Assembly (NCBI GenBank): GCA_017453255.1
Contig: JAFTKN010000010.1
Location: 3,497-67,496, forward strand
Direction: 5' to 3'
Source of the DNA: Clostridia bacterium
GTDB lineage: Bacteria; Bacillota; Clostridia; Oscillospirales; CAG-272
Length of the DNA: 64,000 bases
Shown here: positions 8,923 through 26,701 of the stretch, one piece after another
Numbering within the stretch: position 1 is the stretch's first letter
How the letters are laid out: the number at the start of each line of letters is the position of its first letter
The notes under the pieces: model-generated
The model's database searches: none
Told to the model about the DNA's origin: nothing
Seen by the model: the letters and a program-made list of their open reading frames with translations, nothing else
Translations under genes and position numbers: made by a program

Positions 8923-10251
8923 ATGATGATAAGAAAAATTAAGACTTCATTGTTAAGAATAAACTACAAGCTTTTTGTAGCCCTCTTAGTCCTTGCACTT
9001 GCACCGACGATTTACACAACTGTGCGTGTATTTTTTCTTGGTCAGCTACCAGGGGAGTGGTCGTTTTCAATTGCAGGTCAACTGTCGTGGGTGAATTTGC
9101 TCTATGAAATACTCAATGAAGCAATTGTTTTGCCATTGTTCTTTTTTGTAGGCAAGGTCAAGGACGATAAGGACAAATTTTCTAACAGAGTTAGAACAGG
9201 CATGCTAATATCGCTTGGAGCTTATGCCGTTCTTTCAGCCGTTGTTATTATTTTTGCAGAGCCGTTGTTAAGAATTATGGCTACTGATGCAAGCATTATT
9301 GAAGCATCCGCATCCTACATACGCATCGAGAGCATTGCAAATATCTTTTCGATTCTTACGCAATTTGCTCTTGTAGCGCTTGTTACAATTAACAAAAGTA
9401 AATATCTATATGCACTAACAGGAGCAAAGCTTGTTTTGTGCCTTACACTTGATACATTCCTTGTTTCAACCTTATCAGTATCGGCTAATCTTGGCATAAA
9501 CGGAATAGGCTATTCCAATATTATTGTAAACGCATTATTGCTTGTGGTGTCCATTATACTTCTTGCAAAGGAAGAAATTAAGGTCTTTGCTAAGGCAAAG
9601 CTCAATTTTTCTTGGGCAAAGGAATTTGCAAAAATCGGTGGCATTTCAGGTATTGAATCACTTGTGAGAAATGTTGCCTATATGGTTATGATTGCGCGAA
9701 TGGTTAATATGGTTAATGAGCAGGGAACATACTGGGTTGCAAATAACTTTATTTGGGGCTGGCTACTTTTGCCCGTGCTTCAGCTTGGAGAGCTTATTAA
9801 GCAAGAGGCTTCAACTGATAAGGAAAATGTCCGTCGCAACTCACTTGGCTATTTTGGTATCACTTCAATTATTTCGGTATTGTGGCTTGTAAGCATTCCT
9901 GCATGGAAGCCATTTATGACACATGTACTCGGCTTTACCGATGTGGATAAGCTGTTTAATCTTGTGATGCTTCTAATCGGCTTTTATGTGCTATATGCAA
10001 TTCAAAATGTGTTCGATTCCACATTCTACGGACTTGGAAAAACAAACTATATGCTCTTTGAGTCGGTAGTTACAAATACGATTTATTACGGAATTGCATT
10101 TATCCTTTACATAACAGGAGTATGGACTCCTACACTCACAGGAATTGCATTGCTATTCGGTATAGGAAACGCCTTTGATAGCATTGTATCGCTTGTGGCA
10201 TATGCCTTCTTACTCAAAAAAGAAAAAATCAATATTTTGAAGGTTGAATAA
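8923..10251 (+). CDS. MATE-like multidrug/Na+ efflux transporter
   Basis: 442 aa with about 12 hydrophobic segments in two halves. Confidence 0.75.
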   Translation: MMIRKIKTSLLRINYKLFVALLVLALAPTIYTTVRVFFLGQLPGEWSFSIAGQLSWVNLLYEILNEAIVLPLFFFVGKVKDDKDKFSNRVRTGMLISLGAYAVLSAVVIIFAEPLLRIMATDASIIEASASYIRIESIANIFSILTQFALVALVTINKSKYLYALTGAKLVLCLTLDTFLVSTLSVSANLGINGIGYSNIIVNALLLVVSIILLAKEEIKVFAKAKLNFSWAKEFAKIGGISGIESLVRNVAYMVMIARMVNMVNEQGTYWVANNFIWGWLLLPVLQLGELIKQEASTDKENVRRNSLGYFGITSIISVLWLVSIPAWKPFMTHVLGFTDVDKLFNLVMLLIGFYVLYAIQNVFDSTFYGLGKTNYMLFESVVTNTIYYGIAFILYITGVWTPTLTGIALLFGIGNAFDSIVSLVAYAFLLKKEKINILKVE

Positions 10252-10437
10252 AAAATACCCCTAAAATCCATGTAGGATTTCATGTGGTCTTGATAAAATT
10301 CCATTTTGCATAGTCACTTGTAACGAGACATTATGTGAGAAATTGCAAGAATTTTTGCCAAATTTGAAGAAAAATCGGAGGTTTTGAAAAGCCTCCGATT
10401 TTGTGTTTTATTAGAAAGAGTATGAGATATGCAGTCA

Positions 10438-10869
10438 ACCCCAACTATTAGTCGTTGCTTTTGCTAGCCCTTTTTACTCCGTCTAGCAAATAGCCTCATT
10501 ATAGATTTGGAACGATAAATAGCTCTTTCCACAAACCAGAAACTTCTTGCTGATTGCTTAATCACCTGCACTTTTTAATTTGTATAAATACCTATTTCTT
10601 CGTTCTAAATTTGTGAACAATCTATGCCACACAATAGGCAAGTGAATTCCAATAGAGAAAGAGCAGATATATACTATTCCAAGCCTTTGTCTGTTGGGAT
10701 GTGCTGTCTATTATGCTTCATAGACGCGTTCAATCGGGTACAACGAGGCTAGTCCAGAAAAATTGTCAAAACCGTCCCGTCCTGTCCATTGTCTCCACCT
10801 CTCCAAACCACAAAATAGGCGACCCTGTGGTCAATTTCCAAAATTAAATATTTCACATGTGGTCAAAAA
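10438..10869 (+). repeat. Direct repeat, left copy (10438-10486 + 10750-10869), interrupted by a ~260-bp insert
   Basis: Matches 12824-12872 (2 mismatches in 49 bp) and 12880-13000 (about 120 bp, few mismatches). Confidence 0.9.
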
Positions 10870-10914
10870 GTCAATCCCCAAGATGTCGCCTAAAGCCTTT
10901 TGGGGATTGACTTT
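10867..10914. terminator. 15-bp perfect inverted repeat downstream of hipA
   Basis: AAAGTCAATCCCCAA (10867-10881) / TTGGGGATTGACTTT (10900-10914). Confidence 0.65.
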
Positions 10915-10923
10915 GTTTAATAT

Positions 10924-10959
10924 CAAACTCAAAATTTGCTATGCAGTAAGCAAAGAAAA
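10924..10959 (+). repeat. 30-36-bp module-boundary motif, copy 1
   Basis: CAAACTCAAAATTTGCTATGCAGTAAGCAAAGAAAA; other copies at 13234 and 14835. Confidence 0.8.
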
Positions 10960-10975
10960 GTGGTCAAATATTAAA

Positions 10976-12235
10976 TCAGCCACTATATTTTTCGCTCTCT
11001 CTAAACGCTGGACGCATATTTTCTATTTCGCCTCTGCTGAGCCCGTATTTTGTAGCAAGCGCTTCCCAGTTGTTTTTAACAGTTGTTAGTATATTAGAAG
11101 CATATTTATTTGCCGTATCCTCGTCAATGCCGTAGTGCTTTGCGGTTTCTATGGCAAGCTCAATGGAAATGGACGAGTCAGCTTCGTCAATACAAAGAGC
11201 AAGGTCGTTACCATATGGTACGGGATTTACATCGTAAAGAGGGGAGAGCTGCCAACCACCATTTACGAGAATAAATCCGTGATTGCGAAGATGGTCGTCT
11301 GTGTTTGAAATTGCCATACTGAAAACAATACGTTTCCATAGCTCAATAAGGTCTGTCTTAACATTTGTTCCGTACGCTTTTATAAAATCCACAATGTCAA
11401 GATAAGAGGCATCATGGTCTCCGTCCTGCTTGCCAAGCATAGTCATAGCAGAAGCAAAATGAACACGATTGTGACCGCCTCTATCAAAACGCTTTACTAA
11501 AAAGGTGCTTCCAAGAGTTGAGAATTTTTCAAGCTTTGATTCGGGAACATTCAAGCCACATAGTCTTGCAAGCTCGTGTGCAACCTTTTCCCATGCACCA
11601 ATATTTGAGGTGTCCTTGCGAGAAGGGAATTTTGCAATCCAAAGATTGCCGTCAGGGTCTTGTATGGTTGCCTTAGGACGAGCACCACCAAGAGAAGAGC
11701 CTGGACGAAGCAACTGATTGAGCCACTTGTCAATAAGAGCATTTTCGTCCTTCTCAAATTCACGAGACGCTTGCTCCAAGGTTCTAAGGGTTGCCCAAGG
11801 TGGAGCAGCAGTCTCCTTGTCATCAGAGAGAAAAGGTCCGCCATCCTCTAAAGCAAAACGCAAAGCACCCATTCTGCTTTCATCAAAAACTCCAAGTAAA
11901 TAATCACTGTCTAAAAGCTTGCTTGGCTTTCTGTCTTCCTTGTCAGCGTTAAGCTTCTCTCGACGCTCCATTAAAAGTCGTCCCCAACGGTCAGGGGAAG
12001 AGTCGGAAAAAATGCCAAAGCTCGATTTTCCGTGAGCAGGGAATTGCCTGCCCTTTATAAGAGATAAATCTGGGTCTATAATTAGCATTTGAGATGTAAT
12101 AGCATCAGTCAAAAAAGCAGGATCGAACTGGAAAGAAGAGTGCTCATTGCCACGAATGCTATCAATAAACAATGTGCCAATTTTTCTTGGAGAGTGCGAG
12201 CTCCAATTTTCATATACATATATTTTCTTTTCCAT
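10976..12235 (-). CDS. hipA: HipA-family serine/threonine kinase toxin
   Basis: GSSLGGARPKA, IAKFP, NTDDHLRNHGF, LSPLYDVNP kinase motifs. Confidence 0.9.
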   Translation of the reverse strand: MEKKIYVYENWSSHSPRKIGTLFIDSIRGNEHSSFQFDPAFLTDAITSQMLIIDPDLSLIKGRQFPAHGKSSFGIFSDSSPDRWGRLLMERREKLNADKEDRKPSKLLDSDYLLGVFDESRMGALRFALEDGGPFLSDDKETAAPPWATLRTLEQASREFEKDENALIDKWLNQLLRPGSSLGGARPKATIQDPDGNLWIAKFPSRKDTSNIGAWEKVAHELARLCGLNVPESKLEKFSTLGSTFLVKRFDRGGHNRVHFASAMTMLGKQDGDHDASYLDIVDFIKAYGTNVKTDLIELWKRIVFSMAISNTDDHLRNHGFILVNGGWQLSPLYDVNPVPYGNDLALCIDEADSSISIELAIETAKHYGIDEDTANKYASNILTTVKNNWEALATKYGLSRGEIENMRPAFRESEKYSG

Positions 12236-12564: not shown

Positions 12565-12823
12565 AGTATATCCCTCCTAACATTTATTATTATAAACTAT
12601 TATTACGTTTTTGTCAATAATAATAAACATTATTCCTAAAAATTTCCTTCGCCCAACAAAGAAGAAACAAATGCAGCTTACTGTTTAGGGAAACACGCAA
12701 AAAATGTGTATTGTAGTAGACAGAAAATCGTCTTATCTAGTTTTTCTAGCACTGTTTAGTTTTTCTAGTCCGTTCTAGTCCAGAAATTTTTGCTGGATTT
12801 GCCAAAAAAATGCAAAATTATCT

Positions 12824-13000
12824 ACCCCAACTATTAGTCGTTGCTTTTTCTAGCCCTTTTTACTCCATCTAGACCTGTTTAGTCCAGAAAAATTGCCAAA
12901 ACCGTCCCGTCCTGTCCATTATCTCCACCTGCTCCAAACACCAAAATAGGCGATCCTGTGGTCAATTTTCAAAATTAAATATTTCACATGTGGTCAAAAA
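12824..13000 (+). repeat. Direct repeat, right copy (uninterrupted)
   Basis: Homologous to 10438-10486 and 10750-10869. Confidence 0.9.
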
Positions 13001-13233
13001 TCCAAATTCCCAACCACTCCCCAACTCACCTTCAAAATCCATACCACCAAATACTAACCCCACATTTCACAACTTACCAAATGTGGTCACCCTCACCAAG
13101 TTAAATATTCCAATTGTGGTCGCCACAAAACAGAGAACTCCCACACCGAAGCCACCATAACCATCCCAGCCCTCAAAGTTCTCCAATTTTAACTCTAATA
13201 ACTAGCTTTGTCAACCCACCTTGCAAAAAATCC

Positions 13234-13269
13234 CAAACTCAAAATTTGCCACGCAGTAACCAAAGAAAA
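13234..13269 (+). repeat. Module-boundary motif, copy 2
   Basis: CAAACTCAAAATTTGCCACGCAGTAACCAAAGAAAA. Confidence 0.8.
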
Positions 13270-13316
13270 ATCTTAAAATCAATTTGAAGCTACCCAAAAA
13301 GGATAGAGATAAATTA

Positions 13317-13345
13317 TTGACAGAGAGGCAATGATATGATACAAT
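13317..13345 (+). promoter_or_regulatory. SigA promoter with extended -10
   Basis: TTGACA-17 bp-TACAAT, with TG at the extended -10 position. Confidence 0.75.
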
Positions 13346-13351
13346 AGAATC

Positions 13352-13529
13352 ACAAGAAGGCGGTATGAGTACTTAAACGGCTGGACATAAAATAATAGCA
13401 TTTGACATTGACTATGCAAGTGGTTCATGTCAAATGATAGTGATTTATGTAACGCATTTTAAATATTTGTGCCCGATTGGAGCGCACGGGATATGTGGGC
13501 TTTGTCGGGCTATACTTATACCTTCTTGT
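13352..13529 (+). ncRNA. Putative structured leader RNA/ncRNA (~180 nt)
   Basis: 5' end (ACAAGAAG...GTATGAGTA) pairs with the 3' end (TACTTATAC-CTTCTTGT); internal hairpin ATTTGACAT/ATGTCAAAT with a GCAA loop; second arm GCCCGA/TCGGGC. Starts at the predicted TSS. Confidence 0.55.
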
Positions 13530-13560
13530 AGAATTTACTATAAGGAGGTTGTTTTTATTT

Positions 13561-14607
13561 ATGAACAACGATACACTAAACAAAATTCAAAATGACATCC
13601 AATATCCTTTTAGAAATCCTGATTTGTTACAACAGGCTTTTGTAAGACGTTCTTATTCAAAAGAGAATGGTGGCGAGGACAACGAAGTATTAGAATTTAT
13701 AGGAGATAAAGCACTAGACTTCGTTGTTGTAAAATTGTTAGCTGAAAAGTATGGTTCATTTGCAGAAGAATATGATGACTATAATCCAAATGAGGACTGG
13801 AATGAATTTGAGTCAGAGTATAGCGAAGGAAAGCTTACAGAACTAAAGAAAAAGCTTGTATGTCGTGAAATGTTGGCAAGTAGAATTCGTATGCTTGGCT
13901 TTCAGTATGAGCTAATTTTGGGAGAAGGCGACAAAGAACAAAACATACAAGACAAAGAGTCAGTTCAAGAAGATTTATTTGAGGCGATTATAGGCGCTGT
14001 AGCTCTTGATTCCAACTGGGATTTAGAAAAGCTATCAAATGTGGTTGATTTAATGTTAGATCCAGAGTTTTATTTGGAAAATGGATTTGATGACGAAGAT
14101 AATTATGTTGAATTGCTTCAACAGTGGTATCAAAAGAAACATCACCAAATTCCTGTATATTGTTTTAGAAACACAGGCGGATTTCCTTATTGCGGTAAAT
14201 ATGGAAAGTATGTTTGCGAATTAGGTTCTCCTATGGGCAAAGGATTTTGGGATGTTGGAGATACCAAGAGCGAAGCAAGAATGAAGGTTGCAAAACAAGC
14301 ATACGAATATCTTGAAGAAAACGATCTTTTGTACGATTGGATAGACGAAGTAGGAGAGCCTGAATTTGATAGAGCAATAAATCAACTTCAAGAACTTTAT
14401 CAAAAGGGATACATAGGTGAACCTCAATACGATTTTTCTGAATCATATGACGAAAATGGTAACCCAGTTTGGCACTGTGAGTGTTATGTAGAAGGATATG
14501 GATGCTATTATGATGATTTTTCATCAAAAAAATATGGAAAAAAATCACTTGCTTATGATATGCTTTGCGAAATCCTCGAATGGGAGGGCAAAGATGATGA
14601 GACTTAA
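13561..14607 (+). CDS. Accessory RNase III-family protein with two dsRBD-like domains
   Basis: NEVLEFIGD and EDLFEAIIGA catalytic motifs; two dsRBD-like units (YVELLQQW...TKSEARMKVAKQAYEYL; INQLQELYQK...SKKYGKKSLAYDML); AAGGAGG RBS before ATG 13561. Confidence 0.85.
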   Translation: MNNDTLNKIQNDIQYPFRNPDLLQQAFVRRSYSKENGGEDNEVLEFIGDKALDFVVVKLLAEKYGSFAEEYDDYNPNEDWNEFESEYSEGKLTELKKKLVCREMLASRIRMLGFQYELILGEGDKEQNIQDKESVQEDLFEAIIGAVALDSNWDLEKLSNVVDLMLDPEFYLENGFDDEDNYVELLQQWYQKKHHQIPVYCFRNTGGFPYCGKYGKYVCELGSPMGKGFWDVGDTKSEARMKVAKQAYEYLEENDLLYDWIDEVGEPEFDRAINQLQELYQKGYIGEPQYDFSESYDENGNPVWHCECYVEGYGCYYDDFSSKKYGKKSLAYDMLCEILEWEGKDDET

Positions 14608-14782
14608 AAAATTGCGTCTTGACAAGGGCGTAACACAACAAGAAGTGGCCAATGCAATAGGCTGTTCTGCTAACAACTATGCCCGTTACGAAAGAGAAGA
14701 AAGAGAACCAGATAATTATACTCTAAAACTGTTATCGAAATATTTTGGTGTTAGCATTGACTACATTCTATGCAATGATTGA
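14594..14782 (+). CDS. XRE HTH protein overlapping the RNase III stop
   Basis: RLKKLRLDKGVTQQEVANAIG...YEREEREP...FGVSIDYIL. Confidence 0.85.
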   Translation: MMRLKKLRLDKGVTQQEVANAIGCSANNYARYEREEREPDNYTLKLLSKYFGVSIDYILCND

Positions 14783-14834: not shown

Positions 14835-14865
14835 TCAAAATGTGCTACGCAGTAAACAAAGAAAA
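14835..14865 (+). repeat. Module-boundary motif, copy 3
   Basis: TCAAAATGTGCTACGCAGTAAACAAAGAAAA. Confidence 0.75.
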
Positions 14866-15013
14866 CATAAAACTATGTCACATGGATTGACAGAATTAGA
14901 GATGGGTGTTATAATATCAATGCCTAGCATACTCGTATACAAATCTCCTTTGCACCTTTACCATTAACCTGTAAGGGCATCTCGTATTTCGAGAAATTTA
15001 TGCCCCGAGGAGA

Positions 15014-15310
15014 ATGTCAATGACTACAAGACGCGAGCTTGAGGTTTTGATGAAGCTTTTGATGAAAAAGGCGAAAGCTAAGTATGGTTCTTTAGAAAAG
15101 ATAAGCTGGAAAACAGGCATATCTACTAAGAGCCTTCATAGGTACGAAATAGGTGAAGTATTGCCTTCACTTGAAACGTACGCAATGCTATGCGAGTGCA
15201 TAGGTGGTCGCTGTTACTCTGAAAAGAGTGACAGCGACCTTATTTTTTGCAAAAAAATCAAACAATCGGTCAGGTTTGTCCAAACTATTGAAAAGATGCC
15301 GAAGCGGTGA
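15014..15310 (+). CDS. XRE HTH protein
   Basis: SLEKISWKTGISTKSLHRYEIGEVLPSLET. Confidence 0.65.
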   Translation: MSMTTRRELEVLMKLLMKKAKAKYGSLEKISWKTGISTKSLHRYEIGEVLPSLETYAMLCECIGGRCYSEKSDSDLIFCKKIKQSVRFVQTIEKMPKR

Positions 15311-15684: not shown

Positions 15685-16923
15685 ATGAATTATATTGATT
15701 TGTTTGCTGGCGCAGGTGGCTTATCAGAAGGCTTCATTCAAGCGGGATTTGAACCTGTTGCCCATATCGAAATGAACAAGGATGCTTCTGATACATTGAA
15801 AACAAGAACGTGCTATCATTACTTGAGAGCAAATGGCAATTTAAGGAATTACAAAAGATATCTACAAGGCAGAATAACAAGAGAGCAATTGTATGCTTTA
15901 GTTCCAGCTGAAGAATTAAATTCAGTTTTAAATGTTGAAATATCAGAGAAAACAATAAACGGTATTTTTGATGATGTAGACGAGCTTCTTGCGAGAAAAG
16001 CCGATTGGAATAATGAAGTAGATGTTATCGTTGGTGGACCTCCGTGCCAAGCATATTCTTTGATAGGACGAGCTGTTAAAGATGACAACATGGTAGGAGA
16101 TCCCAGAAATTTCTTATATAAGATGTACTGTAGATTTTTGAATAGATACCGCCCCAAAATGTTTGTTTTTGAAAATGTACCCGGTTTAAAAACAGCGAAA
16201 AAGGGAGAATATTTTAGAAATTTACAAACTTATATGAAGCATGTGGGATATCGCATAGAAGCAAGAGATTTAAATGCGTGTGAATATGGTGTTTTGCAAA
16301 GCAGAAAAAGAGTAATTATTGTAGGTTGGAGAAACGATTTGGATCTTGGATTTCCAAACTTAGCGGCTGTTGCTCACAATTATACAGTGAATGACATTTT
16401 GTATGATTTGAGGGCTATCGAGCCGGGTAAAGAGGATAATAGATATAAACCTGTTAAAAGAAGTCCTTATTTAGGTGCTTTTGGCATTAGAGATAATGAT
16501 GATGTTCTAACTTGGCATGTTGCTCGACCTCATATTGATAGAGATAGAAAAATATATAGAAAAGCGATAGAGTTATGGAATGATGGACACAAACGCTTGA
16601 ACTATAAGAGTTTGCCCAAAAAATTAAGAACACATAAAAATGTAACCGCCTTTCTTGACAGATTTAAGGTTGTAGAAGGCGACACGGCTACTTGCCATAC
16701 AATGATGGCACACATATCAAAAGATGGACATTATTTTATCCATCCAGATATTAATCAAGCAAGATCAATAACAGTGCGAGAAGCGGCAAGAATACAGTCG
16801 TTCCCTGACAATTATTATTTTGAAGGAAGCAGAACAGCCGCTTTCACACAAATAGGAAATGCGGTGCCACCTTTAATGGCGCAAGCAATAGCAACAGGAA
16901 TCAGAAATTTATTGGAGAATTAA
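15685..16923 (+). CDS. DNA cytosine-5 methyltransferase (DrmMII-like position)
   Basis: DLFAGAGG, GGPPCQ, FENV, QSRKR, QIGNAV motifs. Confidence 0.95.
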   Translation: MNYIDLFAGAGGLSEGFIQAGFEPVAHIEMNKDASDTLKTRTCYHYLRANGNLRNYKRYLQGRITREQLYALVPAEELNSVLNVEISEKTINGIFDDVDELLARKADWNNEVDVIVGGPPCQAYSLIGRAVKDDNMVGDPRNFLYKMYCRFLNRYRPKMFVFENVPGLKTAKKGEYFRNLQTYMKHVGYRIEARDLNACEYGVLQSRKRVIIVGWRNDLDLGFPNLAAVAHNYTVNDILYDLRAIEPGKEDNRYKPVKRSPYLGAFGIRDNDDVLTWHVARPHIDRDRKIYRKAIELWNDGHKRLNYKSLPKKLRTHKNVTAFLDRFKVVEGDTATCHTMMAHISKDGHYFIHPDINQARSITVREAARIQSFPDNYYFEGSRTAAFTQIGNAVPPLMAQAIATGIRNLLEN

Positions 16924-16925
16924 TA

Positions 16926-18980
16926 ATGAGTAAAGACATTACAATAAACGAGTTTTATGGGAAGTTTAGTGAAGAAATAGCTGTGGCACAAGATGCCGAG
17001 ACATTTGGCTGGGAGCCACGAGATTTCTTCACAGCTGTTATGCTTGGTTATTTGGAAGAAGCAGGTGTGATCGAAGATCCTATAATTTGTCCTTTTAAAG
17101 TAAGCGGTTTACAAATGAACGCTTATCATATTTCTGAATCATTTGAAGAGGTTGATATTTTTGTTAGTGTGTATAATGCAAATGAAACTCTTTCATCAGT
17201 TTCAAGAACAGATATTGATGCTGCTATAAAAAGAGCTATTCAACTTTATAGAAGAGCAATAAGCGATTTGTATATATCATTTGAAAAAGATAGTGATACT
17301 TATGAATTTGCCATAACATTACATAACGCAAGAGAAAAAATAAAAAAAGTCAGAATTATTGCATTAACAAATGGAATAGTGAAAGCTATTCCGTTTGAAA
17401 AAATTGATTTGGCGGGAGTTGAAGTATCTTTTTCTGTTTGGGATATCGATAGGCTTTATCGCTGTACGACATCTGGTAAAATGAGAGAAACAATTGAAAT
17501 TGATTTTCTTTCATCGTATGGTGTGACGATTCCCTGCATTGAAAATGCCACGTCCAATGTATATAGTGTATATCTTGCAATTCTTAACGGCGAACTGTTG
17601 GCACGCATTTATGAAGAACACGGTCCTAGATTACTCGAGAGAAATGTTAGGTCTTTTTTACAAGTGAAAGGTGCTGTAAATAAAGGTATAAGAGATACTT
17701 TAAGAGATGAGCCGGATATGTTCCTTGCTTACAACAACGGAATAAGTGTAACCGCGGAAAGCGTTGATGTAGTTCGTGATGATAGCGGAAAAACTTCAAT
17801 CAAGAAAATTCGCGATATGCAGATTGTTAACGGAGGTCAAACAACTGCTTCTATATATAACGCTTGGAAGGATAAAAAGCTAGATGTAGATCTAAGCAAA
17901 GTGTTTGTGCAGATGAAGCTGTCTGTGATAAGTACATCATCTGCTATGGATGAAATTGTGCCAAAGATATCTGCGTTTGCAAATACTCAGAATAAAATCC
18001 AGATGGCGGACTTTTCTGCAAACGATCCGTTTCACAGGAAAATTGAAGAACTCTCTCGTATCACTTGGGCACCTGCTCAAGGAGGTCAAAAACCTCACAA
18101 TTGGTTCTACGAAAGAGCAAGAGGACAATATGCTGATATGCTTTCAAAGGAAACAACTCCACTAAGAAGAAAGGCATACAAAGAAACTCATCCATTGTTC
18201 ACAAAAACTGATTTGGCAAAATATGAGAATTCGTGGGATCAAATACCATATTGGGTGAGCGAAGGCGCTCAAAAGAACTTTAAAAAATTTACCATTCGCT
18301 TGGCAGAACGCGGAAATTTTATTCCTGATGCAAAATATTACGAGAGATTAATAGCCAAAGCAATTTTGTTCCGTAGAACGGAAAAACTTGTACAGCAACA
18401 GCAATATGGTGGATATCGTGCGAATATAGTTACCTACACAATTGCATATCTGTCTTATGCCACGGGACAAAGAATAGATCTTGATACTATATGGAAGAAC
18501 CAATCTTTGTCACCAGCACTTGAAGAAAACATAATTGAAGTATCAAAGTTTGTGCAACAGATTATCGTTAACCCTCCGGGAGGGGCGAATGTAGGAGAAT
18601 GGTGCAAAAAACAACAATGCTGGAGCGCGATTAAGGAGTATGATTACAAAATAACAGATGGATTACAAGCCGAGCTTGCTGATCCATCGGATAAATTAAA
18701 TGTGGTTTCTTCTTCTGGACAAGCATCGACTTCCTCACTTAATGTTGCTACTGTTGAGGAAATAACTGTTATTGACAGAGTATATGAAATACCAGCGGCA
18801 GAGTGGTTTTTGCTTGTAAAATGGGCGAAAGAAACTAATAATTTCCAAGGATGGCAAAGGAGCATATTGTTTACTGTAGCACAATTGATTGCAAGAAAAC
18901 ATAAGCCATCATACAAGCAAGCGATTCATGCTATGAAATTATACGAAGAAGCTATTGATAAGGGGTTTAATAAATTTTAA
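16926..18980 (+). CDS. AIPR-family protein
   Basis: LLERNVRSFLQ, FLAYNNGI, QIVNGGQTT, NTQN and WFYERARGQY motifs. Confidence 0.9.
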   Translation: MSKDITINEFYGKFSEEIAVAQDAETFGWEPRDFFTAVMLGYLEEAGVIEDPIICPFKVSGLQMNAYHISESFEEVDIFVSVYNANETLSSVSRTDIDAAIKRAIQLYRRAISDLYISFEKDSDTYEFAITLHNAREKIKKVRIIALTNGIVKAIPFEKIDLAGVEVSFSVWDIDRLYRCTTSGKMRETIEIDFLSSYGVTIPCIENATSNVYSVYLAILNGELLARIYEEHGPRLLERNVRSFLQVKGAVNKGIRDTLRDEPDMFLAYNNGISVTAESVDVVRDDSGKTSIKKIRDMQIVNGGQTTASIYNAWKDKKLDVDLSKVFVQMKLSVISTSSAMDEIVPKISAFANTQNKIQMADFSANDPFHRKIEELSRITWAPAQGGQKPHNWFYERARGQYADMLSKETTPLRRKAYKETHPLFTKTDLAKYENSWDQIPYWVSEGAQKNFKKFTIRLAERGNFIPDAKYYERLIAKAILFRRTEKLVQQQQYGGYRANIVTYTIAYLSYATGQRIDLDTIWKNQSLSPALEENIIEVSKFVQQIIVNPPGGANVGEWCKKQQCWSAIKEYDYKITDGLQAELADPSDKLNVVSSSGQASTSSLNVATVEEITVIDRVYEIPAAEWFLLVKWAKETNNFQGWQRSILFTVAQLIARKHKPSYKQAIHAMKLYEEAIDKGFNKF

Positions 18981-18995
18981 CAAGGAGGAAATGTT

Positions 18996-21578
18996 ATGCT
19001 TTCATGGAATGAATACATAAAGGAATTGCTGTCAACTAAAACTGTATTAGATGATATGTATTTGCAAAATGGCAATACAACTGTGTCGCCTATTGTAAAA
19101 GCTAGTATTCAAATGCTTGAAAGCATGATTGAAACAGAAGGTCCTCATAATGTATTTGTTTTTCCGGAAATTAAAGAATTACTGTACGAGTTCGTTATTT
19201 CTAAGATAGTTTTTAATGTATCAGCAGGAAAAATCAATATAAATTACGATCCGCATTCTTTTCAAAAAGGTCAAAAGTTAAAATATAAAAACTGCATAGT
19301 AAAATTCAACAGGTATGTAGAGAACGATTTTGATGGCAAAGAAAGAATTTATATAGAATTTGCCGATGGAGGAACACGAGGATTACCACCTAAAATTGCA
19401 CCAATATTCCAAATTGTTGATTCTGAAACAAAGCGTTTTTCTAAAGAAAAGGCTTTTGATGAAGTGTATTCTGCCCAAGAAGCACTTGAAGAATTAGAGT
19501 CTATTACAAAGCATTGTAATATTGTAGAAAATTTGAAAGATTATAAGACACATCTTGACGGATCAATATTTTTAGTGACAAACATGAGAAATGCTAAAGA
19601 ATATTTTGATCAAGCATTAATAAACGGAACACCGATGAAAGATGTTCTTTTAATTGGAAAGGTACAAGGCGATGGAAGTGTTGACAGTTGTTATGCAGGT
19701 CAACTTTCTGGAAATCCAGCGATTGTTCTTGTTAATGATTTGTATTCAATACAAAAGGCTATTGAGCACGGTGCCAGAGCACAGTCTGTTATTATTAATT
19801 CTTCATACGGCAATATAATAGAGAATCAACTAGACGTGTTAGATGAGTTGTCAAGCGAAAGCTTTCCGATTTTGTGTCTAACAGATACTAACAATTCGTT
19901 TAATTTGGATGTTCTTTTTGATCGCTGTTATAACATATGGCGCTGGAATGAGAAGAGTTTAGTTGACGAAATACACACTTCTGGACTTAAAACTGCGGGG
20001 TACAGAATAAAGAACTGTGCTGTGCAGAAACTTACATACGAAAAAGTGTCTAGCCTTGAAATAAGCGAGGCACTTCAGTCCTTGTATGCACATAAGAACA
20101 CAATAGAAGAACAAGGGACAAATGTAATAGCGACTTATAACAAACTCTTTTCGCTTTTGTTTACATCTTTAAGATCTGCTATTCCGTTCGAGAGAGAAGA
20201 ACAGTTTAGAGTTCAAAATGTACTATATGAGTGTGAATTTGTATTAAATCAGTCGAAAAGATTTATGAGTCAATCACTGTATAACGATTTGATGAAGGTC
20301 ATAACTTGTTATGAAAAGGTCTTCACAATGACTTTCGAGAATCCTAAAGTCTTAAAAATGTCCGAAATTATATCATCTAAAAAATATTCTTCCGTATGCA
20401 TTGTCATAACAGATCGAATGGATAAAGTGAAATGTGAAGAATACTGGAGAAACTATGCTGTTAGAAAACATAGCCCTACAGTTATAAAAGTGTTATATCC
20501 GCAAGAGTATGCTAACTTCAATGCGGTAAAATACGATGCTACAATTATAGTCGGATGGTTGAACAGTAAAAACATGAGAAATATCATTTATTCTTATGGT
20601 ACAGCTGAATATATCGTATTAACATATGATTGTGAAGAAAAATGGAAAAAAGCACATACAAGGGTTTGGAACAAGGCGTTAGCTAATAGTAGCAATAAAA
20701 ACATTGTGAAAAATTCGTTTAGCAAAACGGCGCAAGTTGAAATATCAGACGAAAGATTTGTCGAAAAATCGGCTATGGTTCATGAGGATACATTCGATGA
20801 ATTGACCGATATAGAGGCATTGATTCAAAGAAATATGTATAAGCAATATGGAGTTTCTAACAATGGTCAGAATCAGGTTGTGGAAGCTTATCCGATCAAT
20901 TTTGTTGGTGGAAATCTTTCCCTCTATAGAACTGGTCATAAAATTGTCACAGTAACAGACATTGTTGTTGACGGCAAGGAAAACGTGTCATTAAGAACTC
21001 CAGATGAACTACAAATTGGTGACTTTGTCGTAGAGAGAGAAGCTCAAAGAGATATTATAAAAGATATAGCAGATAAAATACTCGAAAGAAGTGGCATGTC
21101 CGATGCAAGAACGATAGCGATGCGATGGAAAGAGTCTTTAAATGTAGAAACAGCGTTCGCGTCGTTAGACGTTATTTATCATAATCTTAAACTTCATGGA
21201 TGTTCTCGTGAGTATCAAACTGTAAGAAATTGGATAGAGAATGAGGATCAATTTTCACTATCCAGCAAAGAGGATCTTATTTGTATCGCAAAAACCCTAG
21301 ATGATGAATTATTATTAGAATCAATCGACGAGGTTTATGTTGCGGGTCAAAATGTTAAGCGAGCTCACGTTATGGCAGGGCAGTATTTATCTCGCAAGTT
21401 AAGGGTTCAAATTGCAGAAAGAATTTCTGAATACGGAGAGATAGATCCATTTAATATTTGGGATCCAATAGAACTGCAAATTGAAGATATTGGAAAAGTG
21501 ATAATTTTGAAGATTATTGACATCAATCGTCCGATTTTTGTTGATATGGGTAATACAAACAGATTACTATCTGAGTGA
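18996..21578 (+). CDS. Large hypothetical protein, probable DrmE-like DISARM component
   Basis: 860 aa without a recognisable catalytic motif; position upstream of drmA/drmB in an operon with a C5 MTase fits class II DISARM DrmE (inference from context and size). Confidence 0.55.
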   Translation: MLSWNEYIKELLSTKTVLDDMYLQNGNTTVSPIVKASIQMLESMIETEGPHNVFVFPEIKELLYEFVISKIVFNVSAGKININYDPHSFQKGQKLKYKNCIVKFNRYVENDFDGKERIYIEFADGGTRGLPPKIAPIFQIVDSETKRFSKEKAFDEVYSAQEALEELESITKHCNIVENLKDYKTHLDGSIFLVTNMRNAKEYFDQALINGTPMKDVLLIGKVQGDGSVDSCYAGQLSGNPAIVLVNDLYSIQKAIEHGARAQSVIINSSYGNIIENQLDVLDELSSESFPILCLTDTNNSFNLDVLFDRCYNIWRWNEKSLVDEIHTSGLKTAGYRIKNCAVQKLTYEKVSSLEISEALQSLYAHKNTIEEQGTNVIATYNKLFSLLFTSLRSAIPFEREEQFRVQNVLYECEFVLNQSKRFMSQSLYNDLMKVITCYEKVFTMTFENPKVLKMSEIISSKKYSSVCIVITDRMDKVKCEEYWRNYAVRKHSPTVIKVLYPQEYANFNAVKYDATIIVGWLNSKNMRNIIYSYGTAEYIVLTYDCEEKWKKAHTRVWNKALANSSNKNIVKNSFSKTAQVEISDERFVEKSAMVHEDTFDELTDIEALIQRNMYKQYGVSNNGQNQVVEAYPINFVGGNLSLYRTGHKIVTVTDIVVDGKENVSLRTPDELQIGDFVVEREAQRDIIKDIADKILERSGMSDARTIAMRWKESLNVETAFASLDVIYHNLKLHGCSREYQTVRNWIENEDQFSLSSKEDLICIAKTLDDELLLESIDEVYVAGQNVKRAHVMAGQYLSRKLRVQIAERISEYGEIDPFNIWDPIELQIEDIGKVIILKIIDINRPIFVDMGNTNRLLSE

Positions 21579-21591
21579 GGAAATTGTAAAA

Positions 21592-23337
21592 ATGGCTAGA
21601 ATGATTCCTTCGGTTCTTTCGCCGGAAATTAAAAGCAATGCGGAAAGAAAAATATTTGAGTGGTTTAGAGACGACCCAGAGACAGAAGGCTGGGTGGTGC
21701 TTCACTCGCTTGGTATAGCAAATCATAGAACCGTGTTGTATGGCGAACTTGACTTTTTTGTCATAGCGCCAAGACTCGGTGTTTTTGCATTGGAAGTTAA
21801 AGGTGGCAGAGTAAGTTGTAACGAAGGTGTCTGGTCTTTTACTAACAAGTACGGAAAGACTACATCAAAAACAAGAGGTCCATTTGCGCAGGCAAACGAG
21901 GGCATGTTCAGTCTTATTGATGCCGTAAAGCTTAAATTTGGTCAACGGCACAGATTGAGCAACTTGCTGTTTGGCACAGGAGTTGTATTTCCTGATATTG
22001 AGTTTCAAGTGGATGGAACTGAAGGAGAGCAGTGGCAAGTATTTGATATGAGAGACGGAATGGCTGTGGGTAGTTACATTCGTCGTCTTTCTCAAAATGT
22101 CAAACGCAAGTGGGAAGAGCAATTTGGTTATTTTCCTGAAGATAAATTACCAGATGCTAAGGATGTAAAAGAACTGGCATCGATGCTTCGTGGTAACTTT
22201 GATAAAGTAATGTCCATTGGTAAGAAAATTGCTTATGCAGAAGAAGCTCTTATTACACTTACTGAAGAGCAATTCCGTTGCCTTGATCAACTGGAAGATA
22301 ATCCGAGGTGTTTAATTCGCGGTGCCGCAGGTACTGGAAAAACCTTACTTGCGATTGAAGAAGTAAAGAGATCTGTGGCTCTTGGGCAAAAAGTTGCATT
22401 TTTCTGTTATAATTCAATGCTTGCGAATTGGCTAAAGTTGCTATTTGAAGATGTTGTCCCAGAAATGCAACCAGCATTTATTGGAACAATTCATTCGTGG
22501 TTGCTTCAGGTGGCAAATAGTGCAGGTGCTAATATAAGACCTGGAATTGACGAACTTGATGAGTTCTATAAAAAAGAGTTGCCCCTATTAGCTCTTGACG
22601 CGCTAGATCTATGTCATGTAAGTTACGATAAAATTGTCATTGATGAGGCACAAGATATTCTAGGAACGGATTCGTTTGAAGTTCTGGACGCTGTGTTAAA
22701 GGGCGGCTTGGAGCGTGGAAAATGGGCTATCTTTGGAGATTTTACAAGACAAGCTATCTATCAAAATGCAGATAAAGTAGATGACATAATTGAGAAACTT
22801 GATAATCGCACTTCGTTTATCAGATTCAAGTTGAAAATCAATTGTCGTAATACCAAATTCATTGGTGATGAGATCAAGTGTATAACTGGATTTGATAGTG
22901 GAGCTTACATATGGTCAAAGATTGAAGGAGTGCCTGTTGAGCATAAAATTTTTAGTTCTCAAGACGAGCAGAAACAGCAACTAGAAGATTTAATTTGCAA
23001 GTTGATTGCGGATGGTATTTCTGCTGAAAATATAACCATCCTTTCTCCTTACAAGCGAGAAAACTCTGTTGTTGCAGATATATCTAATGTGAAAATAAAA
23101 GATTACACTCCTAAAACCGAGGGGAAAGTTACTTTTAGTACGATTCAAGCATACAAAGGTCTTGAAAACACTGTAATCATAATGACAGACATTGAGTCGT
23201 TTGAACATGAGCAACTTATGTACGTTGGTCTTAGCAGAGCAAGAAGTGGATTGTTTATTTTGGAGTCTAACGGAGCAAGAAAAGAGTATTTGAATATTCA
23301 AAAAAGGAGGTTTTTAGAAGATGGATACAAGGCGTGA
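21592..23337 (+). CDS. NERD nuclease-related domain fused to a UvrD-like/SF1 helicase
   Basis: LHSL...GELDF...LEVKGG (NERD), GAAGTGKT, IDEAQD, NCRNT, TIQAYKGLE, YVGLSRA. Confidence 0.88.
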   Translation: MARMIPSVLSPEIKSNAERKIFEWFRDDPETEGWVVLHSLGIANHRTVLYGELDFFVIAPRLGVFALEVKGGRVSCNEGVWSFTNKYGKTTSKTRGPFAQANEGMFSLIDAVKLKFGQRHRLSNLLFGTGVVFPDIEFQVDGTEGEQWQVFDMRDGMAVGSYIRRLSQNVKRKWEEQFGYFPEDKLPDAKDVKELASMLRGNFDKVMSIGKKIAYAEEALITLTEEQFRCLDQLEDNPRCLIRGAAGTGKTLLAIEEVKRSVALGQKVAFFCYNSMLANWLKLLFEDVVPEMQPAFIGTIHSWLLQVANSAGANIRPGIDELDEFYKKELPLLALDALDLCHVSYDKIVIDEAQDILGTDSFEVLDAVLKGGLERGKWAIFGDFTRQAIYQNADKVDDIIEKLDNRTSFIRFKLKINCRNTKFIGDEIKCITGFDSGAYIWSKIEGVPVEHKIFSSQDEQKQQLEDLICKLIADGISAENITILSPYKRENSVVADISNVKIKDYTPKTEGKVTFSTIQAYKGLENTVIIMTDIESFEHEQLMYVGLSRARSGLFILESNGARKEYLNIQKRRFLEDGYKA

Positions 23338-26300
23338 GCAAATCATTGATATTGTAACGCGTGAATTTATAGGTCCCGATCCCATTAATAAGCCTGGAAT
23401 GATACAGGAAAACGGAGAAGAAATCTTATCTTCCGATCCTCCTCGCATTAGATATGCTGCAGGTATACTGTTTCCTCAAAAGGTGAGTATTGATAGCAAC
23501 ACCGCAGATGAAAATTCTGAAGTCGTTGAGAACGATACGCCCGATATGTCTGCAGGCGATGAGCCTGAAAGGCATGGTGGTACAAAGGAATATTTGGCTG
23601 ATGCTGAGGAGATGATAAATCTATCAAATGCGTATCAGCAATCCGCGATCAGCATGACAGCAGCGGTATTAGATAGTGATACATTGATTGTAAATGTTTC
23701 TGCCGGAATGTACTCTTCGATAAAAGTTGCAGATCCGGAAACTGGTATTGAGCATGTCAAGTATCCGAGAATTCCGTTGAATTGGAATAATAATGGAATG
23801 CCAATTGATCTCCCCGATGAGACTACCGGAATTAAAAAATATCGTGTTATGCATGGTGAGCAAGAAACGCGCCTCGTGTTTGCTATCACATACAGATACA
23901 AGTATGATGGGTATTCGCTCTATACTTTTACACTTCAAAATGATTTGATTTGCGAGACTTCTATTAGGGATGAGGATTGCTATTTCCAAGTGCAATTCGA
24001 TTTGATATCCGAGCAAGGATTCTCTCCTATGCCGGAAACTGAAAAGCTTACAAGCGATAACGACTATCTGTCAAACCAAATGCTCTATAGGAATATCAAG
24101 ACCTATGCAATTGGTCACGGCTGCGCTGCAAAGTGGGATGAAAATGAATTCCCAGTAAAGAAGCTTTCAACATCCATTTTTCCGATGCATGAGATAAAGC
24201 CCATTGTTCCGAGTAAAATTGACGGCGTTTCTCTTGAAATGTATAAAATGTCCGATTATGGAAACAAAGAAGAGACTATTTCTGAGTTGACCGCTATGTG
24301 CGAGAAATATGCAATATGGATAAATGGACTTTCAGAAAAAGTATCTACAATTAATGACAGAGGAACAGCGATTAGACATATTGAAAATTGCAGACGTTGT
24401 TTGAAACGTATGAAGGAAGGCGTTGAACTTTTAAAGAACGATGCAGATGTTTTGTTTGCATTTCAGCTCATGAATAGAGCTATGTTGTTACAACAGTTGC
24501 ATTATAATTTACCGTTGCAAAAATGGGTTTGCGAAGATGGAAATACCATTCATCTTAAAAATCCAGTAGAAGTTCTTCCGGATGTGAGCAACCAAGAAAC
24601 TTGGTACGGAGATAAAAGTCGTTACGGAAAATGGAGACCATTTCAGCTTGCGTTCGTTTTAATGAACCTTAAGTCTATGGCTAAAAGAAATTGTAACGAA
24701 AGATCAATCGTTGATCTTATATGGTTTCCTACCGGAGGTGGTAAAACAGAGGCATATCTTGGACTATCTGCATATACCATTTTCATAAGAAGGATTAAAA
24801 ATAAGAATAACGCAGGTACTGCTATATTGATGAGGTATACTTTGCGCCTTCTTACATCACAGCAGTACGAACGGGCAGCCGCGATGATATGTGCATGCGA
24901 TGTAATTCGAAAAGAGTTTGAGGATAAACTCGGCAAAAATCGTATCTCAATAGGTCTCTGGGTTGGTGATGCGACTACACCTAATACAATGAAGAAGGCT
25001 GTAGATGCCTACAAAAAAATTTATCGAGATGGTTCTGTAAGTGAAAACAGCCCTATTGTAATTCTGAAATGTCCTTGGTGTGGCGCCCAAATGGGAGTTG
25101 TGCCTACTGGCAAAACGTATAAAATACCAGGATACAAAAAGGTGCCTGATGGCAGAAAAGAGAAGCTAATATTACAATGCGAAAATAAGGAACATGGTTG
25201 TGAATTTTCAAAGATTGGATTTGAACTTCCTCTGCAAATAGTTGATGATGATATTTACGCGAATCCTCCGACTCTTCTTTTGGGAACAGTTGATAAGTTT
25301 GCGATGCTTCCGTATCGTCCAGAGGCTCAAACTTTGTTTGGAATCAAAAATGGCAACCGTGTAACTGCTCCAGATCTCATTATTCAAGACGAACTTCATT
25401 TGATATCAGGACCTCTTGGCTCGATGGTCGGTCATTATGAAACAATGATTAACGAGCTGTGTGCGTATGAGAAAGACGGTGTTCGTATACAACCTAAGAT
25501 CATAGCATCTACGGCTACTATTAGCCGCGCAAGTGAGCAATGTAAGGCACTATACGGTTGTCCAACTGAAAATGTAATGCAATTTCCACCGCCGGGTCTT
25601 GAAGCGGGAAATTCATTCTTTGCCGAAGAGGATAGAGAAGCAATTGGAAGAATGTACGTTGGTGTGTTTGCTGCTGGTTCTTCTTCAATTGCAACTACGA
25701 CTATACGTTTATATGCTACATTGTTATATGCAGCCAAGGCTATTTCAGTTAAAAATGAATCAGACAGAGATGGATATTGGACCAATGTAGGATACTTTAA
25801 TAGCATTAGAGAGCTTGGACAGACGGAAACGTGGATTAAAGCAGATATTGATGAGTATCTTCATGTAATCTATAAAAGACGTTATGAGGATAAAGAAGAG
25901 GGATATAAAGAGAATAGACGCTACATTTATAAAGACGAAGAATTAACGAGTCGTGTAAGTAGTGATAAGATTCCGTTTAGCCTTCAGAATTTAAGCTATG
26001 AATATCCTATGAGTGCTGAAGATAAACGTCCAGTGGATATTTGTTTGGCAACTAATATGATTTCTGTTGGTGTTGATGTTCCAAGACTTGGTTTGATGAC
26101 TGTGTCGGGACAGCCTAAAACAACATCAGAATATATTCAAGCTACGAGCCGTGTAGGTAGAAACAAAAAGGCGCCTGGTTTGGTATTTACAATTTATAAT
26201 CCAGGAAAACCAAGAGATAGGTCTCATTATGAGCATTTTGAAACATATCATTCAAGGGTGTACTGTAATGTTGAGCCTACAAGTGTTACCCCTTTTTCTG

Positions 26301-26701
26301 CTCAGCTACGCGAACGCGCACTACATGCGATAGTTTTTGGTCTTCTCCGTTTGAGAGGAGATAATAATTTAAATGCTGATCCGCCTAAATTTCCGAGTTT
26401 GGAAAAAATTCAAGAGATTAAAGACATTATCGCAGAAAGAATCGAGGCGGTGGATGTTGATGAATTAGAAAAAACATTAGAGCATATTGATAGCATTGTT
26501 GAAAAATGGAAACGCGAAGAACCGGGAAAATATCAAGATTTTGGTACAGGTGAAGTATTACCTTTGATGTTTCGTGCAGGAGCAATGAGAAATGCCACAT
26601 GGGGAAAACGAGGATTTCCCACACCAACATCTATGAGAAATGTAGATGCGTCTTGTGAAGCAATGGTGTTAGAAAACGGATACTTCGAGGAGGATGAATA
26701 A
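23321..26701 (+). CDS. drmA: DISARM helicase DrmA-like (SF2)
   Basis: WRPFQLAF, FPTGGGKTEAY, RYTLRLLT, QDELH, ATNMISVGVD, QATSRVGR; immediately upstream of the DUF1998 gene. Confidence 0.85.
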   Translation: MDTRREQIIDIVTREFIGPDPINKPGMIQENGEEILSSDPPRIRYAAGILFPQKVSIDSNTADENSEVVENDTPDMSAGDEPERHGGTKEYLADAEEMINLSNAYQQSAISMTAAVLDSDTLIVNVSAGMYSSIKVADPETGIEHVKYPRIPLNWNNNGMPIDLPDETTGIKKYRVMHGEQETRLVFAITYRYKYDGYSLYTFTLQNDLICETSIRDEDCYFQVQFDLISEQGFSPMPETEKLTSDNDYLSNQMLYRNIKTYAIGHGCAAKWDENEFPVKKLSTSIFPMHEIKPIVPSKIDGVSLEMYKMSDYGNKEETISELTAMCEKYAIWINGLSEKVSTINDRGTAIRHIENCRRCLKRMKEGVELLKNDADVLFAFQLMNRAMLLQQLHYNLPLQKWVCEDGNTIHLKNPVEVLPDVSNQETWYGDKSRYGKWRPFQLAFVLMNLKSMAKRNCNERSIVDLIWFPTGGGKTEAYLGLSAYTIFIRRIKNKNNAGTAILMRYTLRLLTSQQYERAAAMICACDVIRKEFEDKLGKNRISIGLWVGDATTPNTMKKAVDAYKKIYRDGSVSENSPIVILKCPWCGAQMGVVPTGKTYKIPGYKKVPDGRKEKLILQCENKEHGCEFSKIGFELPLQIVDDDIYANPPTLLLGTVDKFAMLPYRPEAQTLFGIKNGNRVTAPDLIIQDELHLISGPLGSMVGHYETMINELCAYEKDGVRIQPKIIASTATISRASEQCKALYGCPTENVMQFPPPGLEAGNSFFAEEDREAIGRMYVGVFAAGSSSIATTTIRLYATLLYAAKAISVKNESDRDGYWTNVGYFNSIRELGQTETWIKADIDEYLHVIYKRRYEDKEEGYKENRRYIYKDEELTSRVSSDKIPFSLQNLSYEYPMSAEDKRPVDICLATNMISVGVDVPRLGLMTVSGQPKTTSEYIQATSRVGRNKKAPGLVFTIYNPGKPRDRSHYEHFETYHSRVYCNVEPTSVTPFSAQLRERALHAIVFGLLRLRGDNNLNADPPKFPSLEKIQEIKDIIAERIEAVDVDELEKTLEHIDSIVEKWKREEPGKYQDFGTGEVLPLMFRAGAMRNATWGKRGFPTPTSMRNVDASCEAMVLENGYFEEDE

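Follow-up and report, generated by a model that had tools for sequence, protein, structure and literature searches.

An accessory ribonuclease III with a second RNA-binding domain and its dedicated structured leader RNA in a horizontally moving cassette of gut and rumen Clostridia

In Escherichia coli, ribonuclease III (RNase III) autoregulates its expression by cleaving its own 5′ untranslated region, the site of the rncO element (RF00552). The yeast enzyme Rnt1p has an N-terminal dimerisation domain and a single double-stranded RNA-binding domain (dsRBD), with which it recognises AGNN tetraloops, and it cuts 14–16 base pairs (bp) away. In the type III toxin–antitoxin (TA) systems ToxIN, CptIN and TenpIN, the antitoxins are tandem repeats that are processed by the toxin. 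Here we describe a locus that resembles each of these systems in part. It lies in a stretch of 64,000 nucleotides (nt) from a Clostridia bacterium (GenBank assembly GCA_017453255.1, contig JAFTKN010000010.1, positions 3,497 to 67,496 of the forward strand), hereafter called the window. Positions 13290–14782 of the + strand form a compact unit of about 1.5 kb, in which an operator and promoter are followed by a leader RNA of about 200 nt, a terminator hairpin that also hides the ribosome-binding site, an RNase III gene, and an overlapping gene for an XRE-family helix-turn-helix (HTH) protein. This cassette is a small, self-contained, horizontally moving accessory unit that hundreds of gut and rumen Clostridia carry. 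Its leader is tied one-to-one to one subfamily of RNase III, the HTH gene being optional. Its anatomy and the RNA switch that it contains are together held with high confidence. The features of the cassette, including its Shine–Dalgarno (SD) sequence, its predicted transcription start site (TSS) and its two open reading frames (ORFs), are as follows:

13290–13306, unstranded: palindromic operator CTACCC-AAAAA-GGATAG, a putative site for the XRE HTH protein, 10 nt upstream of the −35 box
13317–13345, + strand: sigma-70 promoter with −35 box TTGACA, a 17-nt spacer and a TG-extended −10 box TACAAT (score 11/12)
about 13352, + strand: TSS, predicted from the promoter position
13351–13371, + strand: 5′ strand of P0, the closing helix, with a CGG bulge between CACAAGAAGG and TATGAGTA; the antiterminator or anti-sequestrator strand
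13364–13468, + strand: P1, a long hairpin (about 35 bp, interrupted) whose internal loops are conserved and whose apex, UAUGCAAGUG, is invariant
13469–13512, + strand: P2, a GC-rich hairpin (TGCCCGA..TCGGGCTA) whose inner stem is variable
13513–13529, + strand: 3′ strand of P0, TACTTATA-CCTTCTTGT
13513–13560, + strand: expression platform, comprising the P0 3′ strand, the terminator/SD-sequestering hairpin and a T-run
13520–13531 with 13538–13549, + strand: terminator/SD-sequestering hairpin, flagged as terminator-like by the scan
13543–13549, + strand: SD sequence AAGGAGG, the 3′ arm of that hairpin, 11 nt upstream of the RNase III ORF
13550–13560, + strand: T-run after the hairpin
13561–14607, + strand: accessory class-1-like RNase III of 348 amino acids (aa), recognised by Pfam, PDB alignment, AlphaFold and Foldseek
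14594 or 14597–14782, + strand: XRE-family HTH protein of 61–62 aa (HTH_3, 3.7e-15), overlapping the RNase III stop by 11–14 nt

The likeness to rncO lies in a structured 5′ leader placed directly before an RNase III gene, and an enzyme acting on its own leader is the most economical reading of this order. The leader nevertheless matches no Rfam family, rncO included, in either sequence or structure: against Rfam 15, no family reached its gathering score anywhere in the window, and only chance-level matches were returned at E values up to 10 between 12500 and 15700. Whereas rncO is a stabilising hairpin, the cassette leader is a three-helix domain with a switch between an antiterminator and a terminator or SD sequestrator, and the gene behind it, which encodes a second dsRBD, is a mobile accessory paralog rather than the housekeeping rnc. 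A literature search found no description of either the leader or the enzyme subfamily; a catalogue of 16,482 unnamed candidate RNAs of the human microbiome (PMC8040213) could contain the leader. In the layout of its switch, the leader recalls ribosomal-protein leaders, PyrR, T-box and terminator/antiterminator riboswitches, in that the 3′ strand of its closing helix competes with a terminator or SD sequestrator at near-equal energies. In contrast to these regulators, the cassette RNA is a new fold that is confined to one gene family.

The leader is an undescribed, strongly conserved and covarying structured RNA. The 220-nt leader of the window folds at −72.5 kcal/mol (z = −6.7), and none of 200 shuffled sequences was as stable. 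Its ends are joined by P0, in which 5′ CAAGAAGG..TATGAGTA pairs with TACTTATA-CCTTCTTG; the arms of P1 include ACATAAA/TTTATGT and ATTTGACAT/ATGTCAAAT, and the GCAA loop of the P1 apex lies at 13416–13419. When 54 distinct sequences were fitted to a covariance model (R1, below), 94.4% of alignment cells were paired, and both sides had changed in 32 of the 42 pairs. The P1 helices are each 88–100% paired in this alignment and 87–99% in a set of 36 leaders, with compensatory changes in most pairs, and the outer helix of P2 is 99.5–99.7% paired, with changes on both sides in five of its six pairs. RNAalifold, run on an unfitted MAFFT alignment of the 36 leaders, returned 47 pairs, and compensatory changes were seen in 28 of these. 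Pair counting on the same leaders gave 93.9% of cells paired, as against 39–47% in slid controls, with 30 pairs double-changed and none of 500 shuffles reaching this level. P1 and P2 make up the covariance model, R1, while P0 and the terminator were assessed by pair counts and duplex energies. Complementarity of the P0 ends was found in 36/36 leaders, divergent sequences included (z = −3.9 on average relative to shuffled 5′ segments, and below −2 in 34 of the 36; z = −5.6 for the duplex energy in the window), and five of nine P0 pairs show changes on both sides in the unfitted alignment. By blastn, the leader is about 90% identical among loci whose proteins are only 52–57% identical. No conserved small ORF was found within it.

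A preliminary description of this locus, made from its sequence alone, had already proposed a strong promoter at 13317–13345, pairing of 13352–13371 with 13513–13529, a long imperfect hairpin with the arms and GCAA loop given above, and a second, GC-rich arm. Each of these is borne out: homologs do carry the leader, its covariation is strong, compensatory changes are seen in both hairpins, and the promoter is kept in register, at a fixed distance to the leader, in 44 homologous leaders.

The switch itself lies in the expression platform. The segment CCTTCTTGT doubles as the P0 3′ strand and the terminator 5′ arm, and P0 and the terminator hairpin are therefore mutually exclusive. The hairpin is 90.9% paired across the 36 leaders. 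With P0 formed, read-through and a free SD would be expected (the ON state); with P0 lost, termination or SD sequestration would follow (the OFF state). When each state was forced in 12 representative leaders, the two energies lay within 1–5 kcal/mol of each other. In most loci, the window included, the SD is sequestered by this same hairpin. In three of the homologous cassette loci that make up the comparison set (80 loci from GTDB, numbered with the prefix L), namely L019, L013 and L042, the hairpin and T-run are followed by about 40 nt and then by a separate SD, so that here the hairpin is a terminator in its own right. A switch between an antiterminator and a terminator or SD-sequestering hairpin is thus well supported. 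The preliminary description had called the module RNA-controlled, and that wording stands on the covarying leader, the architecture of the switch and the exclusive tie between the leader and its RNase III subfamily.

This tie was seen from both directions. Starting from the gene, R1 matches on the + strand, 40–50 nt upstream of the start codon, were found in all but one of the 80 GTDB loci (79), and that one is cut by a contig end; the matches extend to distant loci of Lachnospiraceae and Anaeroplasmataceae that lack an HTH gene. Starting from the RNA, metagenome contigs were scanned for a conserved 19-mer; of the 16 loci returned, 11 were true by the model, and an RNase III gene follows the leader in 11/11. 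The other five were chance matches without an RNA model score. The window's own genome holds one R1 copy, and under strict filters R1 was found in two of 300 sampled genomes of the class.

The protein encoded behind the leader has the hallmarks of an RNase III. Pfam reports Ribonucleas_3_3 (PF14622) and Ribonuclease_3 (PF00636) above cut-off, plus one dsrm match. The RNase III signature is present as NEVLEFIGD and EDLFEA, and E42, E45, D49, D138 and E141 are invariant in 76 homologs. An AlphaFold model built with the 76-sequence alignment (predicted local distance difference test, 89.8) comprises an RNase III domain at residues 1–175 and two dsRBDs, at 182–253 and 269–338; in the extra dsRBD, the first helix, AINQLQEL, is nearly invariant. 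In the model, an acidic segment, EEYDDYNPNEDWNEFESEY (residues 65–88), forms a beta-hairpin within the loop that precedes the EGKLT helix; this is a +10-aa variant carried by only part of the family. The alignment of residues 1–255 with entire bacterial RNase III structures in the PDB (1o0w, 7r97) runs from end to end, and the top Foldseek matches are bacterial RNase III and the RNase IIIb domain of Dicer with its dsRBD. Compared with canonical class 1 RNase III (Rnc; 7r97, 1o0w, 2ez6), then, the nuclease domain, the first dsRBD and all catalytic acidic residues are shared. However, the canonical enzyme has about 220–250 aa and one dsRBD, whereas the cassette enzyme has 348 aa, an additional C-terminal dsRBD, and an alpha3–alpha4 loop that is longer by 8–18 aa and acidic in part of the family. 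Unlike Rnc, it also scores below the NCBIfam TIGR02191 equivalog cut-off (139.2 against 166.25 bits), lacks a conserved genomic context, and is not single copy.

Within the window's own genome, a second, canonical and better-scoring rnc is found elsewhere as a 243-aa frame. Likewise, a canonical rnc of about 230–250 aa is present in each of the 24 carrier genomes tested, giving at least two RNase III genes per genome, and some of them have two or three copies of the cassette. The cassette RNase III is therefore always an extra paralog. Thus, the claims made earlier for this protein, namely intact catalytic acidic residues, an unusual acidic insertion, two dsRBDs instead of one, an overlap with an XRE HTH gene and a setting other than that of a housekeeping rnc, all held up, with the reservation that the insertion belongs to part of the family only.

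The family is large. It comprises more than 2100 proteins as 90% clusters and 288 clusters at 50% identity (E < 1e-30), with relatives in 372 GTDB species genomes. By record title, the taxa are mostly Clostridia (Oscillospiraceae, Christensenellaceae and Lachnospiraceae), together with Anaeroplasmataceae. Carriers that exist in culture are Ruminococcus sp. JL13D9 (L053), Pumilibacter intestinalis CLA-AA-M10 (L047), Hominiventricola aquisgranensis CLA-AA-H78B (L082), Butyrivibrio sp. AE3009 (L081) and Pseudobutyrivibrio sp. ACV-2 (L077). Two cassette loci, L015 and L050, come from metagenome-assembled genomes labelled Alphaproteobacteria and Bacteroides; mis-binned short contigs or long-range transfer are the likely source of these labels. 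Decaying copies also occur: L063 and L067 have a frameshift in the RNase III ORF, and L005 has a degenerate HTH gene.

The third gene is less constant. Of the 80 loci, about 45 retain the HTH protein, conserved as MRLKELR.. and showing the same −10 overlap, and comparison with these homologs indicates that the window's copy likely starts at its second ATG, at 14597. According to Pfam it is a bare DNA-binding domain of 61–62 aa, without an extra toxin-binding part, and PADLOC returned only generic HTH matches for it. HTH-positive loci carry a palindrome, TATCC-AAAAC-GGATA, directly upstream of the −35 box, with symmetric variants in L006 and L008 (CTACCC..GGGTAG) and in L034 (GGTAACC..GGTTACC). 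The window's copy, CTACCCAAAAAGGATAG, is the sole site with that spacer in the whole genome, and the palindrome is missing from HTH-negative loci. Since the operator is present with the HTH gene, absent without it and unique in the genome, the HTH protein is best read as a local transcriptional autoregulator, and its small size and the position of the putative operator make it look like one.

In the remaining loci, the RNase III gene is followed by an HNH_3 protein, by tiny acidic ORFs or by nothing recognisable. The HNH_3 protein (about 335–341 aa) recurs directly after the cassette in L005, L006, L007, L009, L069 and L086. Tiny, very acidic ORFs of 41–64 aa, such as FNYESGEYEDIDRDGYSW..YNWDDSEY, stand in the place of the HTH gene in L053, L061, L076, L081 and L082, and in these HTH-less clades they could encode a nuclease inhibitor or partner. 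The idea that the acidic insert of the enzyme stands in for a separate acidic partner was rejected, as the two show no anticorrelation and L061 has both.

Transcription of the cassette in vivo is documented, and many gut metatranscriptome runs contain the conserved leader. In assemblies of three bovine-gut metatranscriptomes, contigs of a close relative of L012 begin 10–20 nt past the predicted TSS and run through the leader and the RNase III gene into the HTH gene; no contig from these three runs reaches upstream of the TSS, and one has a depth of about 90. A contig from a fourth run (X10) includes the promoter, and this run may contain DNA. The window's own sequence was not found in the RNA runs, apart from a relative's contig.

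The distribution of the cassette is patchy and mosaic. Leader identity remains at about 80% even where protein identity is 40–55%, and some pairs of loci combine leaders that are 95–98% identical with proteins that are 55–59% identical. In sliding-window comparisons, identity falls from 96–100% to 50–60% exactly at the start codon, and several pairs of loci show a sharp drop at both ends of the leader. Between L004 and L018, identity climbs again to 81–90% over the HTH gene. For this pair, and for L012 against L004 and L007, the RNase III ORFs are about 57% identical in amino acid sequence, one with and one without the acidic insert. Flanks shared at the leader and the HTH gene around a differing nuclease ORF point to recombination within a pool of cassettes.

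Taken as a whole, the best explanation, which we hold with moderate confidence, is an accessory RNase III cassette that is doubly autoregulated, by the enzyme at the leader and by the HTH protein at the promoter. The exclusive linkage of the leader to this enzyme, irrespective of the third gene, leads us to prefer the enzyme over a small-molecule ligand as the effector of the switch, for which the chances seem slightly better than even. In outline, a dimer of the two-dsRBD RNase III would bind and cleave the long P1/P0 helix, possibly using the invariant tetraloop apex for recognition. The cut would free the P0 5′ strand and flip the mRNA to the OFF fold, and negative feedback would presumably result, akin to that of rncO but by another mechanism, a switch. 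The HTH protein, encoded last, would bind the palindrome upstream of the −35 box and autoregulate the promoter, probably by repression.

Several points weigh against this explanation. Binding or cleavage of the leader by the encoded enzyme is something that we infer, and the conserved unpaired nucleotides and near-isoenergetic switch would equally fit a small-ligand riboswitch. The sign of the feedback is not fixed, as dsRBD binding without cleavage would stabilise P0 and give positive feedback. In the bovine-gut contigs, the depth over the leader is about 90 as against 57–72 over the ORF, which is no obvious leader excess, contig depth being a poor measure; attenuation is thus not visibly strong in those samples. 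Finally, leaders that are 96–100% identical in front of ORFs that are only 55–59% identical indicate recombination, and the conservation of the leader partly reflects shared recent ancestry and not constraint alone.

Unlikely, and yet the best of the alternatives, is an RNA-antitoxin TA or abortive-infection system of the type III kind. Here, most transcripts would end at the terminator, and the long hairpin of the resulting abundant RNA of about 200 nt would occupy the four dsRBDs of the RNase III dimer and render it harmless; upon a collapse of transcription, for example during phage infection, the labile RNA would decay, and the freed enzyme would degrade double-stranded RNA (dsRNA) and stop the phage or the cell, with the HTH protein as a regulator or second antitoxin. 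The gene order of type III TA operons is indeed matched, with a promoter, a structured non-coding RNA, a leaky terminator and an endoribonuclease gene. However, the cassette RNA is single and non-repetitive (TRF, the Tandem Repeats Finder, found no tandem repeats in 13200–13560, and a repeat search there gave hairpin arms only), and the nuclease has the fold of RNase III rather than that of ToxN/AbiQ. In PADLOC-DB 2.0, the RNase III matched no family. A toxin-first gene with an overlapping HTH gene and a palindrome also recalls type II TA modules such as higBA, mqsRA and hicAB; yet the HTH protein is only a bare DNA-binding domain with a putative operator of its own, and about half of the family lacks it. 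Sister clades exchange the HTH gene for the tiny acidic ORFs, whose products are possible nuclease inhibitors. The patchy, multi-copy and mosaic distribution is typical of defence and addiction genes; against this, gut metatranscriptomes show transcription of the entire operon at good depth, and the cassette is rarely phage-borne. Specifically, 50 of 52 pattern matches on viral contigs were due to chance and the two true ones were cut at the locus ends. A search of PHROGs returned one family of unknown function only.

Genomic context also speaks on both sides of this question. The preliminary description had placed the cassette between a TA module and a DISARM-like island and had suggested a toxin or defence module. 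The setting was identified correctly: upstream lie HipA (10976–12235, − strand) and a HipB-like HTH gene, and downstream, at 15685–28555, lies a class 2 DISARM island with DrmMII, DrmE (C-terminal domain), DrmA and DrmB. The positive evidence for the suggested role comes from this local neighbourhood; in other loci, some neighbours are defence or mobility genes and most are ordinary. Among 80 loci, 268 neighbouring ORFs fell into 231 clusters with no recurrent partner. Pfam and PADLOC searches of 142 nearest neighbours gave, as raw counts, three AbiEi, two AbiH, two LmuB, three PDC-S01, two Mob_Pre and five HNH_3 proteins, a defence or mobility share of about 10%; most were ordinary genes such as RtcB, SpoVAD and thiolase, and the two contexts read in detail were housekeeping. 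A toxin or defence role is a hypothesis drawn from the local context and the analogy with type III TA systems. If it were true, the cassette would be the first toxin or defence module based on an RNase III, and a single structured RNA would gate it.

Somewhat less probable again is a ruler-type RNase III in bacteria, comparable to Rnt1p or to a minimal Dicer or Microprocessor, with the leader as its dedicated RNA partner. A dimer with four dsRBDs would dock on the GCAA apex and cut at a fixed distance. The outcome might be an RNA-held nuclease, freed by invader dsRNA or by transcription shut-off (RNA-gated abortive infection or addiction), or a small duplex RNA, released from the variable upper stem and with a function of its own. 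The mosaic pattern, in which the leader and HTH gene are near-identical between loci while the nuclease ORF has been swapped, would fit diversifying selection on the nuclease. The resemblance to Rnt1p, by analogy only, lies in a tetraloop-capped, invariant apex on a long hairpin beside an RNase III. Rnt1p differs in being eukaryotic, in reading AGNN rather than GCAA loops and in having a single dsRBD, and loop recognition by the cassette enzyme is hypothetical. A search of the window's own genome for trans targets of the leader or its variable upper stem gave only chance-level matches of at most 15 nt.

More doubtful still is a riboswitch, or a leader controlled by another trans factor, in which a ligand would stabilise the P0–P1–P2 junction and turn on the RNase III/HTH operon, the enzyme itself playing no part. 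A helix-closed aptamer whose 3′ strand competes with a terminator or SD sequestrator is the classic layout of such elements; moreover, the junction and internal-loop nucleotides are highly conserved, and the invariant GNRA loop suggests tertiary docking. Known riboswitch classes, however, usually control several transport or metabolic gene families, whereas this RNA was found before one gene family only, in the GTDB loci and in the RNA-first scan alike and in its single copy in the window's genome, and it has no linked metabolic gene. Self-recognition is the simpler reading, given that the gene downstream encodes a dsRNA-binding protein. Very improbable, finally, is a function of the leader as DNA, that is, as a recombination or attachment site for cassette exchange and not as an RNA structure: identity does drop exactly at the leader's two ends in several pairs of loci and 23-nt direct repeats bracket cassettes in this genome, but 32 of 42 pairs are compensatory, strand-specific RNA logic (G–U pairs, a terminator with its T-run, SD sequestration) is unlike a DNA site, no recombinase is linked, and the region is transcribed.

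The cassette offers a compact RNA–protein pair for the study of substrate choice by RNase III and of the control of nuclease dosage on mobile DNA. It adds to the known structured RNAs a family that is absent from Rfam 15, has a switch architecture, occurs in hundreds of gut and rumen Clostridia, and is expressed in vivo. It also defines a bacterial RNase III subfamily that has two dsRBDs and always travels with its own RNA. For annotation, these genes are now labelled "ribonuclease III" or "hypothetical", and they should not be counted as housekeeping rnc.

The surroundings of the cassette in the window are themselves repetitive. A 23-nt motif, TGCNAYGCAGTAANCAAAGAAAA, brackets the cassette and precedes successive modules:

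10937–10959: further copy, preceding the hipBA module
13247–13269, + strand: upstream copy, inside the 51-nt repeat family D1
14843–14865, + strand: downstream copy, followed by the promoter at 14887–14915

These three copies in the window compare with an expected 0.02, and a fourth lies about 4.6 kb past the window's end; the genome holds six copies in all, four of them on this contig. In addition, hipBA is flanked on either side by copies of a non-coding unit of about 500 nt (10350–10970 and 12785–13280, 88–94% identity), and the duplicated unit and the motif array look like a cassette array or an insertion hot spot. Within the duplicated intergenic unit, (A/C)TGTGGTC occurs four times at 12957–13125, twice as part of AAATTAAATATTTCACATGTGGTC-like 24-mers; these copies may be protein-binding iterons.

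Just downstream of the cassette, a second, perfect promoter (TTGACA-17-TATAAT, 12/12; 14887–14915) drives a 98-aa ORF with a weak HTH match (14887–15310). A strong terminator hairpin (15206–15239) lies inside the 3′ end of this ORF, just before an excisionase-like ORF and DrmMII. Interleaved in the DISARM island are an AIPR/MzaE-like protein (16926–18980) and a helicase (21517–23337) whose best PADLOC match is the NERD-helicase model RTasNERD-Hel. Finally, a transporter of the MatE family adjoins the cassette in several genomes (8923–10251 in the window, 5236–6588 in L012, 9240–10565 in L083, and also in L032). It lies upstream of the cassette in the window and downstream in L083, where it overlaps the HTH stop, and this recurring neighbour suggests a shared insertion neighbourhood.

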